This document shows positions 744 to 20,863 of a stretch of 64,000 bases of DNA, one piece after another. Every line of letters starts with the position of its first letter. Position 1 is the first letter of the stretch. Both the position numbers and the translations under genes were made by a program. Below the pieces are notes generated by a model, which saw only the letters and a list, made by a program, of their open reading frames with translations, did not search any database and had not been told where the DNA came from. The stretch is from NCBI GenBank assembly GCA_051362555.1, contig CM120646.1, positions 4,278,001 through 4,342,000 on the forward strand, given 5' to 3'. This stretch comes from Lingula anatina (Eukaryota > Animalia > Brachiopoda).

Positions 744-3700
744 ATGGGCGACAAACTGCGGGCACTGTGGGTTTACCTGGTTTGCTGCCACCAGGGTAAG
801 ATTTACATGGGATTTATGAGTTAGATAAGTTAGCTGCACTAAAAACACTACTGGAAGCAAACAGAAGCTACTTATGCCAAGTATTCCAAGGTGCAGTTTA
901 CACAGAGATACAGCTGCGAAGACTATCGAGATCATTTGGAGACCTCTTTCCAGCTCCTAATCAATTGAGGACCACTTTCTAGTGAGAAGGGGACTACCCA
1001 CGACGTACACTGGACTCTCTCTGAGAGTCGTGTGGTAGGAATGGAAGTCCGGGCTCCCATATGATCAGTATAGTATAGGTTACGGTTAGTCGGTGTATTA
1101 GAGTAAGTATATGGGACGGGTGTTACTTGTACAATATAATGGTGAACGGACTGCGATACCTAGCGGACAACCATTCCTGCCACAACGGTCGCATCCGAGA
1201 TTGCGTTTGCTATTTTTTCTTAATATCGGGTAGATCGTGTTGATTTGTTGATGTTTCAAAATATAAAATAAATTCTCTTTCAGTTCTTACGTTTGACGTG
1301 ACAAAATCTGGACAGACGTATATCAGAGCAGGATCACAGACCACGTTGACATGTCAGTGGACACCACCAGCTGGAATTGGTCCTTTGAGAGTAAACTGGA
1401 GACAAGGTTCTACAATAATAGCAACTGCTGTCTTACCCAGCTTTACACCACAGTATCCTGACACAAGTGTAAAGGACCGTGTAACACTGGGCACTCTAAC
1501 CTCTACAAGTACCAGTACATCAATAACATTAACAAGATTACAGTGTCCAAATGATATAGCTGTGTATACCTGTGATATCACAACTGATGCACTACAAGAC
1601 GACAGTGGAACAGCAAGTTTCAACGTTAATCTATTTTGTAAGTGTTATGTAAAATATATCACGTTTACATGTATAATTATTTAGCGTGATCACATGTGAT
1701 ACTCCGGTAGCATAAAATAATGTCAGCCGTACATGAACGATAAGCTTTTTGATTCCATTTATACGGTTTTAATATCATATTTGGAAAATAAGTTAACATA
1801 TTTCAGTGAATGATTCATGTATATTGTAGTAACGGGATGTAGAATGCTTGATGTTTTGTTTCGTAAATTCAGAACGATTGGTAAAGTGCCTTTTGAAAGT
1901 AAGTAACTTAATTTATTTTGCTATTCCAAATTAACAAGGTTTTGTAAAACGATTTTTTTTCTAAAGTTTTCATTGGAAACGACATCGTGATCATATCCTC
2001 ACCAAGTCAGCTGCAAGCAGGACAGCATGCTTCCCTGACTTGTACAGCCAGTAATATTGGGCGACCACCAGGCATCATGAAGTGGCAAAGAGACTCTCAA
2101 GAAATCAGCACTGGATTTACTCAGCAGACAAGTATCAATAGTGATAATTGTACCTATGATGGAGTTAGTATTCTGAGTATTACACCGACATCCCAGGATA
2201 ATGGAGTTATTTATAAGTGTGTTGTTGACCCAGATGCTACAGTGATTGGAGACTCCAGAAAGGAAGGAAGGTATACACTGGATGTACAATGTTAGTATTC
2301 CGCTGTGTCTTAAGATTTGTCTCTATACTGTTATTGTAAGAAATATATATATAATTTTTGATTGTTATTTCCTCTGCGTTATCCACAAAGGACTTGCATT
2401 ACACATTGTTTATCATCTTTCGTTTGATTTATTATTATTTGTAATATTTTCGCTGTCTCCTTAGATTTTCGTTTTGTAAAACACTTAATTCTTTTAATAT
2501 TTCTGTCCACATTTTTTAATTTTATTTATCAATGTGTTGCATATTTCAGACCCAGTGCCACAGGTGCCAAGGGTGACATCATCCACTGGTACATTTACAG
2601 TTGAGCAGGGAACAACTTTTACTCTCAACTGTCAGGCAAGCGGCAATCCAAGTCCAAGCTATGTGTGGACCAGTCCGGATAATACCAACTCTACTGGCTC
2701 TCAGCTTGTGCTGACACTGTCCAATACTGGACCTTATGTGTATACTTGCTTTGCCACCAACAGTTTGACAACATCGCCATTGCCAACAGCTGTCACAGTG
2801 ACAGTACAAGGTAGGTGCTATATCAAAATTCAAACCATGGAAAAGTTGGTCACCCTTTATGAAATATCTCCAGGTTTTTGTTATTGGTATTTGTGTTTAA
2901 GAAGGGATTCGTTAAAAAACAGAGTTCCAGGGGACCCCTAGTGCTGCTGTCTCCATCTGTTGCATTGAGAGATAAAACTCAAAGCAGAACAAAGCAGAAC
3001 AAAGATAAGCGTTATTACCAGACATCCAGGCAAGGTCTTCGCAGTCACCAAGGTGCTCATACCTTTATCACGCCGTGAAATGTTCCATAACTAAAAAAAA
3101 TCTGCCACGAGTGAAATCCACGGCCCCCATGTAAGTCTAGAAATTTACGTTTTGAGCATGGTAACAATTGTCTGAACGGTTGCGGTTGTTTCCTCTCATT
3201 TTTAAATTGCAAATGTGATGATTTAGTGACTAACATGACTTAGTAAAAATGGAAGCCGTTTGTTTTATTAAACTTACAACCAATTGATCCAATTTCTTAT
3301 TGTCCTATGCTTTATAGAGAAAACTACTACATCAACAACAACATCCACGACAACATCAACGACAACATCAACGACACCAGTAGCAGTAGCATCATCAACA
3401 GACACACTTACATGTACAGGAGGCAAGGGTCTACATAGCACAGGTAATAGGTTGGGCTGAAAAGAGATATGTGTTTAATCTTTGACCCAAAATACAATGG
3501 ATCAAATGTTTTAAAACGTATTTGGAGTACTTTGATGCAAAATGTCCTTTTTGTTGTGTTGTTCAATTTGGTGCTGTTTTGCGCCAATGTGTCTTTTTAT
3601 TTCAAGATTTTGTATCTCTAAGGCGTGTTGGTTGGCGCAGTTGTGGCAGCAGTGGTGATAACATTTGGGGTCGCGGTTGCTTTATTCGTCCTGTATCATG

Positions 3701-4318
3701 TGAGTAAAAAAATGTACAGTTACATTTTTATTCCACTTTAGTTTTCTGGTAAGAAAATACATGAGTTATTTCATGATGGTGCAAAAGTTATTAAGATTTA
3801 TTGACACGATCGTATAAAATATATTCAAGAGAAGATACATAACTAAAGCAAAAGTTTTTCAGACTTGTGTGAACATTTTGTTATGCAATAGATGTATCAT
3901 TGACATTTTTCGTTTGTAGAGGAGCATGGTGCATAGATTTCGGAAGAATAGACAATCTGCTGACACTGTTGAAGTGGAAGTTACGGAAGGCAACAATGAA
4001 TACGCCGTGCTAGAAAGAAAACCAGATGTTAATGAGGTATATTAGATAGAATCTTAACTTTGTATTACTAAACCAAAAAAATTGAATTCATCTGGTCTTT
4101 TGCTCACTGTCCTATTGTTGGACTCCTGACTTTTATTGGATGGAGAAATACATGTGATATATGTGGGTCTTTTATTATTTGACAGTAAGCTGCCATGAAA
4201 CACCTTGCGTCTTGCAAAAATATTTCATTTTTTATCCACACGTTTATTTCAGCCGGATCACACTTACGCAGCACTTCAAGGAAAGATGGCGTCATTCAAT
4301 ACACCACCAAGAAAATAA
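744..4318 (+). CDS. Ig-superfamily type I membrane receptor, copy A (V-C2-I Ig domains, Thr-rich stalk, TM, kinase-less tail with two YxxL motifs), ~458 aa
   Basis: Exons with GT-AG boundaries and continuous frame: 744-795 (MGDKLRALWVYLVCCHQ), 1284-1637 (TLTCQW...DIAVYTC), 1967-2290 (LTCTAS...GVIYKC), 2550-2810 (LNCQASGNPSP...YTC), 3318-3443 (EKTTTSTTT...), 3623-3699 (GVLVGAVVAAVVITFGVAVALFVLYH), 3920-4036 (...NEYAVLERKPDVNE), 4253-4318 (PDHTYAALQGKMASFNTPPRK*). Ig and TM exon lengths match the paralogs. Confidence 0.88.
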
Positions 4319-19022: not shown

Positions 19023-20863
19023 ATGGGCGACAGACTACATTATCTTGTGCTGGCACTGTGTGCTTACGTGATTTGTTGCCACCAAGGTAAGATTTACATC
19101 TAATATGTTGGGTATTTACGTAATATTAACAATCCGGTCTCTCTCTCTCTCTCTCTCTCTCTCTCAGAGTCCCCCCAAGGTCATCGCATGTATAGTCAGG
19201 AGTTTATTTTTAGGGGTGGTATAGGGACAGGGAGGTCTTACCCCCCCTCCCCCATAAAAATGAAAAATTATCGAGGACAGACTGTATTATTTTATACAGA
19301 TTTCAAACTACAAAACAAATTCTCTTACAGTGCTTTCTAGTACGGTTAAAAAATCTCTACAGACTTATGTTCAAGCAGGATCACAAACCACGTTGACATA
19401 TCAATGGACACCACCAGCTGGGGTTGATCTTCTTAGAATAAACTGGAAACAAGGTTCTACAGTGATAGCAACTGCCACAACACCTAACTTTACACCACAA
19501 TATCCTGACACAAATGTAAAGGACCGTGTAACACTGGGCAGTCTTACCTCCTCCAGTACCAGAACATCAATTACATTAACAAGATTACAGTGTCCAGGTG
19601 ATATAGCTGAGTATACCTGTGAGGTGGTTACTTCTGCACTGCATGACAGCACTGGAACAGCAAGTTTCAACGTTAATCTATTTGGTAAGTGCCATATAGA
19701 ATAATAAAACTGCGTATTTACTTTGACCAGGACCAGAAAGATTAAGATCATTTTGATTGACATATGCATTTCATTAAGATGAACTAAAAGATAATTTTAT
19801 ACAAAAGTCGACCAGATGTCACCACAAAGTTTCAAGTAGTATAACTTAGAGAAATGCCAAAAGTCATCGTATTACCCGAGAAAAGAAATGGATTTTCTGC
19901 TTGCTTGCTGAGCTGTATGTAAATGGGGCAGATAAGTAAGACAAATTATAGGTCGGTCAAATTTACGACCAAAAAATTTAAAGAGGTGTCAATTTAAAGC
20001 TATTTTATGGCTTATCGATTGATTAATTCGGTTTATATCTTGGCATGTCGACTTTATTTGATTTGTATAAGAAACTAGTGGGAGTGGTTTATATATAGTG
20101 TACTGACTTGGATTCCATCGATGTTCGGTTCATATTTTACCTCTGTATCTGTATCTGTTCGTTTGTAATAATTACATCTTTAACATTAATAGTCTCTAAA
20201 ACTCGCTGTAGAGTTCCTTGGAAACGACATCACAATCACATCCTCACCAAGTCAGCTGAAAGCAGGACAGCATGCCTCCCTGACTTGTACAGCCAGTAAT
20301 ATTGGGCGACCGCCAGGCATCATGAAGTGGTACAAAGGCTATCAAGAAATCACCACTGGATTTACTCAGCAGACAAGTATCAATAGTGATGGTTGTACCT
20401 ATAATGGAGTTAGTAGTCTGAGTATTACACCGACATACCTGGATAATGGAGTTATGTATACATGTGTTGTTGAACCAAACTCTGCAGTGAGTGGAGACTC
20501 CCCAAAGCAAGGAAGGTTTACACTGGATGTACAATGTAAGGATTTTATCATAGGTTAGAATTTGTGTTATATATATATATATATATATATATATATATAT
20601 ATATATATATATATATCGTGATTCTGTGAACAGTTTCGGTTATGGTATACTTTTGTGATTAAGGGAAAAGAAGTGAAAGTTCTAAAAAAAAAAAAAAAAA
20701 AAAAAAAAACGGTTCCTTTTCATAAAAATCTCAGGGATCTCTTCTCTCATAATGACCTACTGACTAAAATGAATTTGTCAAGAATGAAAGTCGTGTGGGT
20801 TATTAGACGTAAATACACAGTGTATGGAGCCATTTTATCTTGCTGACCGTTCCTTTTACAGAG
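19023..20863 (+). CDS. Ig-superfamily copy D: signal + V + C2 only, predicted secreted (~247 aa) or a truncated pseudogene
   Basis: Exons 19023-19086, 19331-19684, 20212-20535. The Ig3 exon is absent. The next acceptor (stalk exon 20862-20915) gives T|AG = stop at the junction. No TM exon is found downstream. The V-domain B-strand Cys is replaced by Tyr (TLTYQW). Confidence 0.7.
19137..19165. repeat. (TC)n microsatellite
   Basis: Direct reading. Confidence 0.9.
20568..20616. repeat. (TA)n microsatellite in the intron where copy D lacks its Ig3 exon
   Basis: Direct reading. Confidence 0.95.

Follow-up and report, generated by a model that had tools for sequence, protein, structure and literature searches.

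A tandem cluster of V-set receptor genes in Lingula anatina with V-domain differences leaning towards three loops

The 64-kb stretch of Lingula anatina DNA analysed here (64,000 nucleotides of contig CM120646.1, hereafter the window) carries four immunoglobulin (Ig) genes, A, B, C and D, which lie head to tail, all on the + strand, and contain introns. Genes A and C encode a signal peptide, a V domain, two further Ig domains (Ig2 and Ig3), a Ser/Thr stalk, a transmembrane segment (TM) and a short tail without a kinase. Gene B is a receptor tyrosine kinase gene, broken in the haplotype of the window, and D has neither Ig3 nor TM exons. A first-pass annotation had proposed that the V domains of A, C and D differ mainly in three loops resembling complementarity-determining regions (CDRs), driven apart by diversifying selection on ligand specificity. 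Here we analyse where these differences lie, how the genes have evolved and what kind of receptors they may encode. The features on which the analysis rests are these (MITE, miniature inverted-repeat transposable element):

744..4318 (+): gene A; leader 744-795, V 1284-1637, Ig2 (C1-like) 1967-2290, Ig3 2550-2810
Gene A, 3' part (+): Ser/Thr stalk 3318-3443, TM 3623-3699, tail 3920-4036 and 4253-4318; 458 aa
1284..1637 (+): V exon of A; V-set, with Cys23, Trp38, Cys96 and an extra Cys87
1361..1387 (+): BC loop of A; model residues 26-34, variable at 31-33
1433..1450 (+): C'-C'' loop of A; model residues 50-55, variable at 49, 50, 52 and 53
1574..1606 (+): residues 97-107 of A, from the top of strand F through the FG loop into the start of G; the most variable segment
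1967..2290 (+): second Ig exon of A (Ig2); scores highest to Pfam C1-set, few synonymous changes despite near-unalignable flanking introns
6047..11753 (+): gene B, encoding a receptor tyrosine kinase but disrupted in the window haplotype; Ig3 remnant 7136-7216
Gene B, 3' part (+): stalk 7839-7961, TM 8128-8204, then eight exons 8360-11753
6099..6386 (strand not assigned): MITE-like insertion that interrupts the leader exon of B and has inverted ends of 14 bp
12894..16581 (+): gene C; leader 12894-12957, V 13791-14144, Ig2 14424-14747, Ig3 15094-15354
Gene C, 3' part (+): stalk 15899-16000, TM 16178-16254, tail 16471-16581; 430 aa
13791..14144 (+): V exon of C; 1/117 residues different from RefSeq protein P0001, 0 in loops
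19023..20915 (+): gene D; leader 19023-19086, V 19331-19684, Ig2 20212-20535, stalk-like exon 20862-20915
19331..19684 (+): V exon of D; 1/117 residues different from RefSeq protein P0002, 0 in loops; Tyr at Cys23 (19399-19401)

Six close homologues of the V exons were found, all of them RefSeq proteins of Lingula anatina. P0001 and P0002 are 99% alike to C and D, respectively, in V and 96% in Ig2, and judged by this likeness they are probably alleles of these two genes; the window was taken as a second Lingula haplotype relative to the RefSeq proteins. Protein searches, which were length-limited, returned no paralogs or close kinases outside Lingula. Of the 11 matches that a profile search found among 1.84 billion representatives, one was P0004 and ten were distant; the six that were inspected included one repeat protein and four V-set proteins that were kept for alignment. 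The best alignable V matches from outside Lingula are nectin/PVR-like by reading of their sequences (P0011: hhalign probability 94.6%), and the ESM Atlas returned generic Ig clusters.

The V domain and its differences

Pfam called V-set for the first domain, C1-set (best score) for Ig2 and Ig_2/Ig_3 for Ig3. The V-set scores were 34.5 bits for A and 29.4 bits for C (cut-off 26), with D below the cut-off at 23.8; D lacks Cys23, having Tyr in its place, as does P0002. A first fold, of P0001 (275 aa), was poor, with a mean predicted confidence (pLDDT) of 54, and its Foldseek list was not used for conclusions. The V domain of A was then modelled with AlphaFold from an alignment of seven paralogs and four distant V-set proteins, nectin-like rows included. 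The model (pLDDT 86) contains strands A, A', B, C, C', a short C'', D, E, F and G, and has the canonical V-set fold, with a TM-score of about 0.8 to single-domain antibodies (VHH). Its list of structural matches was headed by TIGIT, nectin-3 and CD200 (Z 15.1-14.8), with VSIG4, MPZ, VCBP and antibodies within 1 Z. In this model the loops span residues 26-34 (BC), 50-55 (C'C'') and 100-106 (FG), and the three variable segments named by the first-pass annotation lie where the fold has its BC, C'-C'' and FG loops. The loop and framework motifs that it quoted are all present as written in the V exons of A, C and D.

The differences were counted after dropping P0001 and P0002, the probable alleles of C and D, and P0007 and P0008, which are isoforms of P0005. 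Among A, C and D, 43 of the 117 V columns vary: 17/22 in the annotated segments and 26/95 elsewhere, with mean pairwise differences of 0.64 inside and 0.18 outside (block permutation p 5e-5, to be read in the light of the segments having been chosen after seeing these same data). The pattern recurred in four held-out RefSeq paralogs (P0003-P0006), in which 19/22 and 41/95 columns vary (0.58 vs 0.25; block p 1.5e-4), and per-site variability in A, C and D correlated with that in the held-out proteins (Spearman 0.51). With the loops defined by the model, the effect shrank, the differences being 0.41 vs 0.24 among A, C and D (p 0.03) and 0.50 vs 0.27 among the held-out paralogs (p 0.003); unbiased loop definitions gave an enrichment of about 1.7-2.3-fold. 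The proposed clustering exceeds chance and repeats in paralogs that had not been seen, but of all differences no more than some 29% (28-30%) fall within the model loops, which make up 22 of the 117 sites.

The pattern is not explained by loops simply varying more than strands, a possibility ruled out by values of 0.19-0.23 for the other loops and 0.26-0.27 for the strands. The BC, C'C'' and FG loops together differ at 0.43, against 0.23 in the other six loops (p 0.004); A'B, CC' and EF are nearly invariant. Changes in the loops were also more radical, 52% having a negative BLOSUM62 score compared to 27% elsewhere. Six of the 17 most variable sites lie in the three loops, five on adjoining strand positions (49, 56, 95, 99 and 107) and six elsewhere, on the A strand and in C''D and DE. 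On the model, with surface mapping taken from strand assignment and alternation rather than measured exposure, a description of the variable patch as BC together with the upper GFCC'C'' face would suit it better than one as three CDR tips. The A strand and the C''-D segment vary too, and in D the B-strand Cys23, which lies inside the framework that had been called conserved, has been replaced. Ig2, left out of the first-pass annotation, is as divergent as V between A and C (31/107 and 30/117 residues different) and somewhat less so between A and D (24/107 and 30/117) and between C and D (23/107 and 34/117). Over the paralogs, the mean difference was 0.28 for V (n=7), 0.21 for Ig2 (n=7) and 0.13 for Ig3 (n=6).

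We fitted codon models to the three V exons of A, C and D, bearing in mind that gene conversion breaks the assumptions of these models. Diversifying selection was not detected in these three sequences: 2ΔlnL (twice the log-likelihood difference) was 0.31 for M8 vs M7, 0.15 for M2a vs M1a and 0.15 for M8 vs M8a. For the whole V domain the ratio of nonsynonymous to synonymous rates (ω) was 0.45, below 1 (p 0.0005), and for the framework 0.27-0.38, showing that the V framework is under purifying selection. Loop ω was 1.41 (95% set 0.9-2.3) for the annotated segments, 1.02 (0.6-1.7) for IMGT-like loops and 0.85 (0.5-1.4) for model loops, the set including 1 under all four definitions; it was 2-5 times the framework ω (p 0.009 or smaller). 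Residues 97-107 around FG, taken alone, gave 1.93 (1.0-3.5; p 0.059). In simulations, loop ω values of 1, 2 and 3 were called positive in 1/25, 21/25 and 25/25 runs, and because ω of 2 or 3 was detected so often, it is improbable that all three loops are under strong selection. The loops are freer than the framework and change at a roughly neutral rate; a few FG sites may be under selection. For Ig2, ω was 1.54 (M8 vs M8a p 0.022, M8 vs M7 p 0.072, both uncorrected; estimates 1.1-1.7), and for Ig3 it was 1.03. In sum, the loop pattern is real but moderate, positive selection is unproven, and the first-pass annotation overstated the case.

In the other domains of the family, the Ig2 exons (1967-2290, 14424-14747 and 20212-20535) match C1-set with E-values of 1e-10 to 1e-12, ahead of C2-set_2. 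All paralogs carry an additional Cys in the EF loop of V (residue 87) and another in Ig2 (residue 61), and the two may pair up as an inter-domain disulfide.

Mosaic exons and alleles

The exons of these genes have mosaic ancestry. At four-fold sites the three pairs of genes differ in V at 17/48, 8/51 and 15/50 positions (16-35%) and in Ig2 at 2/38, 2/41 and 3/43 (5-7%), synonymous divergence being unequal between the two exons in every pair (Fisher p 0.001-0.008). The introns flanking both exons are near-unalignable, mostly 48-76% alike in 60-base windows. The V and Ig2 trees of the seven paralogs reject each other in approximately unbiased (AU) tests (p 0.013 and 0.003), the Ig2 of A groups with that of P0005 (support 98), and a test like the pairwise homoplasy index (PHI) on V plus Ig2 gave p 0.013, 2e-4 and 2e-4 with three window sizes. 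These results support gene conversion among members between exons, without significance within V.

The Ig3 and TM exons had been described as much more conserved than the V loops. This holds for A vs C, the only pair that can be compared, as D has neither exon. Moreover, from Ig3 onward to the 3' end the sequences of A and C agree at about 90%, introns included, and since the introns are as alike as the exons, this likeness reflects a recent tract of exchange or duplication. Constraint as its cause was ruled out, the Ig3 ω of 1.03 pointing the same way; recent shared ancestry explains what had been read as a contrast to the V loops.

Variation between alleles was also assessed. Between two haplotypes, C and D each differ from their probable allele at 1/117 V residues and at none in the loops, which is evidence against hyperpolymorphism of these two genes. 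A and P0003 differ at 2/19 BC and FG sites and at 20/90 sites outside the loops, the lowest BC plus FG count of the 21 pairs; this match was noticed after the fact and is treated as a lead. In the single DNA run used (X5), there was no depth at the listed sites of the V loops and Ig2 of A (1385-2256), and the V exon of C was closely covered. Gene A may be absent or divergent in the X5 animal; contig holes, however, prove nothing.

Kinase gene, receptor ends and transcripts

In B, the leader is interrupted by the MITE-like insertion, and V, Ig2 and most of Ig3 are missing. Its ten exons from the stalk onward form a single open frame of 430 aa with a full tyrosine kinase. P0003 carries the complete ectodomain on a stalk, TM and kinase of B type (signal peptide, ectodomain, one TM and a protein tyrosine kinase domain), and besides P0003 no close kinase relative appeared at E 1e-25 among 307 candidates. 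The best match of the N-lobe was FGFR1 (E 1e-13), and a C-lobe exon matched ROS, RET, IGF1R and FGFR about equally; by these matches the kinase appears FGFR/RET-like, its family not being assignable. Unlike FGFR/RET-type kinases, the Lingula ectodomain begins with a V-set domain. The catalytic motifs VAVK, αC Glu, HRD and DFG are present in B. Departures from the kinase consensus occur in the glycine loop (GEGRFW, 8730-8898), where the third Gly is replaced, and in the catalytic loop (HRDLATRT, 10232-10354), where the Asn is replaced. A Glu lies in the middle of the TM helix of B (8128-8204) and of P0003 (VVAEVI), at a position occupied by Ala in A and C; a Glu in the TM of a kinase receptor recalls the dimerising TM mutations of Neu and FGFR3. 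The Ig3 exon of A (end 2810) and the stalk exon of B (7839) have compatible phases, and from the exon phases the ectodomain of A could in principle be spliced onto the intact TM-kinase exons of B; this joint was absent from the 15 joints listed of the 84 in RNA reads.

The last exon of A aligns with the exon that opens the kinase of B, with a frame shift just before the glycine loop. Because this exon is a frameshifted copy of the kinase-opening exon, the short tails derive from a kinase gene. The tail of A, which ends where the kinase of B begins, carries YAVL-x12-YAAL; this juxtamembrane YxxL-x12-YxxL of the kinase gene is kept in A and in P0004, which has an A-type tail, and the tail of C has one YVVL motif and an early stop. 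With the immunoreceptor tyrosine-based activation motif (ITAM) written as Yxx[L/I]-x6-12-Yxx[L/I], the spacing is 12 in A, P0004 and B and 11 in P0003; spacings of 11-12 fit the x6-12 rule given in the available part of PMC13358205 and lie outside the x6-9 of the available part of the Hydractinia Alr preprint (bioRxiv 10.1101/2022.03.04.482883). In D, the Ig2-to-stalk splice creates a stop, and P0002 ends on the same residue, so D is predicted to be a secreted V-Ig2 protein. In P0005, encoded outside the window, this ectodomain is joined to a TM unrelated to the others and to a tail with two matches to the immunoreceptor tyrosine-based inhibition motif (ITIM), LVYAEL and VEYAEI; A, C, P0003 and P0004 have no such match, and B has one, inside the kinase domain. 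No Lys or Arg was found inside the TM of any member, Glu being present in B and P0003. Thus one V-C1-like-Ig ectodomain occurs with four kinds of end: a kinase (P0003), a short tyrosine tail (P0004 and A), no TM (P0002 and D) and an ITIM tail (P0005).

Three RNA runs (X12, X15 and X18), added by species label, showed that the family is transcribed and spliced. RNA covers the Ig exons, and the Ig2-Ig3 joint 2290-2550 was found in 85, 6 and 7 reads of the three runs. In X12, 219 reads run from Ig3 into a stalk resembling that of P0005, and the ITIM form seems, by these reads, to be the main transcript there. X12 reads also carry V residues absent from the seven paralogs (Met11, Met20 and Ile99, unphased), from which it follows that more V variants exist.

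Other elements lie in and around the cluster. High-copy palindromic or MITE-like repeats occur at 4933-5083, 6570-7130 and 17178-17520, between and inside its genes. At 22400-27243 (-), a large C2H2 zinc-finger-like gene with a 1041-codon exon and weak Pfam matches forms the 3' boundary. Farther away, a rhodopsin-family G-protein-coupled receptor frame (7tm_1; 40737-42167) has a stop at 41768, and a second frame (41769-42167) seems to hold the last helices; the break near 41768 is possibly a frameshift or an assembly error. Four very similar long carboxylesterase-like exons lie in tandem at 44717-61635, those at 44717 and 48412 on the + strand and those at 54783 and 60019 on the - strand; the COesterase Pfam match comes from the first of the four, the one that was scanned.

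A candidate family of paired receptors

We propose that A to D are tandem copies of an Ig family found in our searches in Lingula alone, and that they are likely paired recognition receptors under gene conversion; we put the probability of this reading at about one half. In such a system the distal V domain would bind ligand through its upper GFCC'C'' face and the BC, C'C'' and FG loops, as V-set proteins generally do, each paralog with a specificity of its own, and the framework, Ig2, Ig3 and stalk would hold V away from the membrane. The tail would set the response: the kinase form and the double YxxL of A would be activating, the ITIM form would inhibit through SH2 phosphatases, and a soluble D would serve as decoy or opsonin. 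Ig2, Ig3, stalk and TM would likely be kept alike by gene conversion or unequal crossover, the V exons being older and more distinct, and exchange between copies would mix ectodomain parts and tails. The ligands may be microbial or self; the data fit either.

Several observations weigh against this proposal. The spacing of 12 in A satisfies the loose ITAM rule only, and C retains a single YxxL. B is broken in this haplotype and has odd kinase motifs, which suggest that the kinase may be inactive, and the P0003 gene model stops mid-kinase. P0005 lies on another RefSeq contig than P0001-P0004 (219 kb vs 276 kb). V identity among members, 66-78%, is lower than in classic pairs. The RNA reads are mostly 90-99% alike to the window and not assignable to A, C or D themselves, and depth over the kinase exons was seen only in X18 (0.18-1.38), with none in X12 or X15 over 9004-12338. 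Outward residues of the GFC face do not differ significantly from those of the ABED face (0.42 vs 0.30, p 0.13), the PHI-like test detected no significant mosaicism within V alone (p 0.07-0.10), and Ig2 and Ig3 ω values near or above 1 are also compatible with decay.

Such decay is the core of one alternative, a birth-and-death array in which a duplicated adhesion or signalling receptor drifts, its exposed loops neutral, its copies decaying and its tail differences accidental. The loop ω of about 1, with Ig2 at 1.1-1.7 and Ig3 at 1.0, would suit it, as would the broken B, a D without Cys23, Ig3 and TM, the early stop of C, the A tail ended by a frameshift, and the location of about 70% of the differences outside the loops. 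It accounts poorly for a V framework kept by purifying selection although the flanking introns are near saturation, for reading frames of C and D that stay open in two haplotypes, D ending alike in both, for A'B, CC' and EF loops that hardly change while BC, C'C'' and FG vary, and for the unrelated TM and two clean ITIMs of P0005; we consider it distinctly unlikely. The idea that positive selection has driven all three CDR-like loops apart, altering ligand specificity, draws on the recurrence of the clustering in held-out paralogs, the excess of loop over framework ω, the FG value of 1.93 and the radical nature of the loop changes. We nevertheless find it doubtful: M8 gained 0.31 over M7 and 0.15 over M8a, every loop set includes 1 despite detection of ω=2 in 21 of 25 simulations, the Ig2 signal is stronger (ω 1.54), and the fits rest on three DNA sequences whose conversion violates the model.

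The family might instead form a nectin- or Alr-like self-recognition code, with V-V binding by the GFCC'C'' face and loop variants deciding the matching of cells or individuals. The nectin/PVR-like character of the best V matches outside Lingula, the V-C1-like-Ig layout with Necl-4 among the top sequence matches, the place of TIGIT, nectin-3 and CD200 at the head of the fold list, the lack of X5 depth over A and the additional V residues in X12 are all in its favour. Yet the C and D alleles are 1/117 V residues apart, unlike the many Alr1/Alr2 alleles; the fold ranks are tied within 1 Z, nectin-like rows having already been in the folding alignment; and the holes over A in X5 carry no weight. 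The nectin T(Y/F)P key in FG was found in none of the seven paralogs, which have TTD, TTS, TSA, TAD, LYF and TTA, nor was the AX6G lock (Gly seven after the C' Ala), both motifs as defined in the available text of PMC12657745. We hold such a code to be improbable. Returning to paired receptors, a fuller version, in which a brachiopod built an immune system with a kinase as activating arm, kinase loss yielding an ITAM-like tail, ITIM and decoy partners, conversion trading CDR-like loops (A sharing BC and FG with the kinase form) and selection on FG, is in our view speculative and unlikely as a whole.

Known systems resemble the Lingula family in part, and we assign it to none of them, given the lack of a basic TM residue, of the nectin key and lock motifs and, at C and D, of allelic variation like that of Alr; the papers cited here are compared as far as their accessible portions go. 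Vertebrate paired receptors (Siglec-5/14, Siglec-11/16 and PILRα/β) came closest in presumed mode of action, with similar ectodomains, opposed tails and gene conversion, and they often lose the activating partner (PMC13358205), as B is broken in the window haplotype. They differ in using a basic TM residue for DAP12, the candidate activating arm of Lingula having its own kinase or a YxxL pair, and the Lingula V domains are only 66-78% alike, with conversion strongest outside V. In the sponge Geodia cydonium, too, a V-like and C1 tandem occurs both on a receptor tyrosine kinase and on long and short forms that lack the kinase (RTK/SAML/SAMS), an invertebrate set discussed as self/non-self recognition; C1-set domains were unreported outside vertebrates until the sponge structures (PMC11926128). 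The Geodia domain lacks C'' and has polymorphic sites over both domains, whereas the Lingula V has a short C'' and differences near BC, C'C'' and FG, and Lingula adds a third Ig domain and a stalk. No Geodia structure was among the matches listed in our sequence and fold searches.

The Alr genes of Hydractinia are likewise clustered invertebrate members of the Ig superfamily with an N-terminal V-set domain and ITAM or ITIM tails (bioRxiv 10.1101/2022.03.04.482883). The Lingula family, by contrast, is small, includes a kinase and lacks an Fn3-like domain; its V residues are canonical, and V hardly varies between alleles at the two loci compared (C and D). Nectin, Necl and TIGIT share the V-C1-like-Ig (V-C-C) layout, a similar C'-C'' sequence and an equal FG length in the alignment, but identity is about 25% and the tails are different. 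The VCBPs of amphioxus are similar in being few tandem V genes that show focal hypervariation, differ in copy number and undergo gene conversion amid pseudogenes and repeats, and VCBP3 V1 matches the A model at Z 14.0; they are secreted V-V-chitin-binding proteins whose allelic hypervariation is displaced from the CDR positions (PMC2632668).

A literature search, with most subscription papers and supplements outside its reach, returned no account of the Lingula family, and the word 'brachiopod' is absent from the accessible part of PMC11999971. Vertebrates and Hydractinia, and in a looser sense sponges, have variable V-set receptors with opposed tails, and we found none described for brachiopods. 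If our proposal is true, paired receptors arose independently in a lophotrochozoan, truncation would be one way for a receptor kinase to give rise to an ITAM-like tail, and Lingula would offer a small, testable family whose variation already leans to CDR-like loops.

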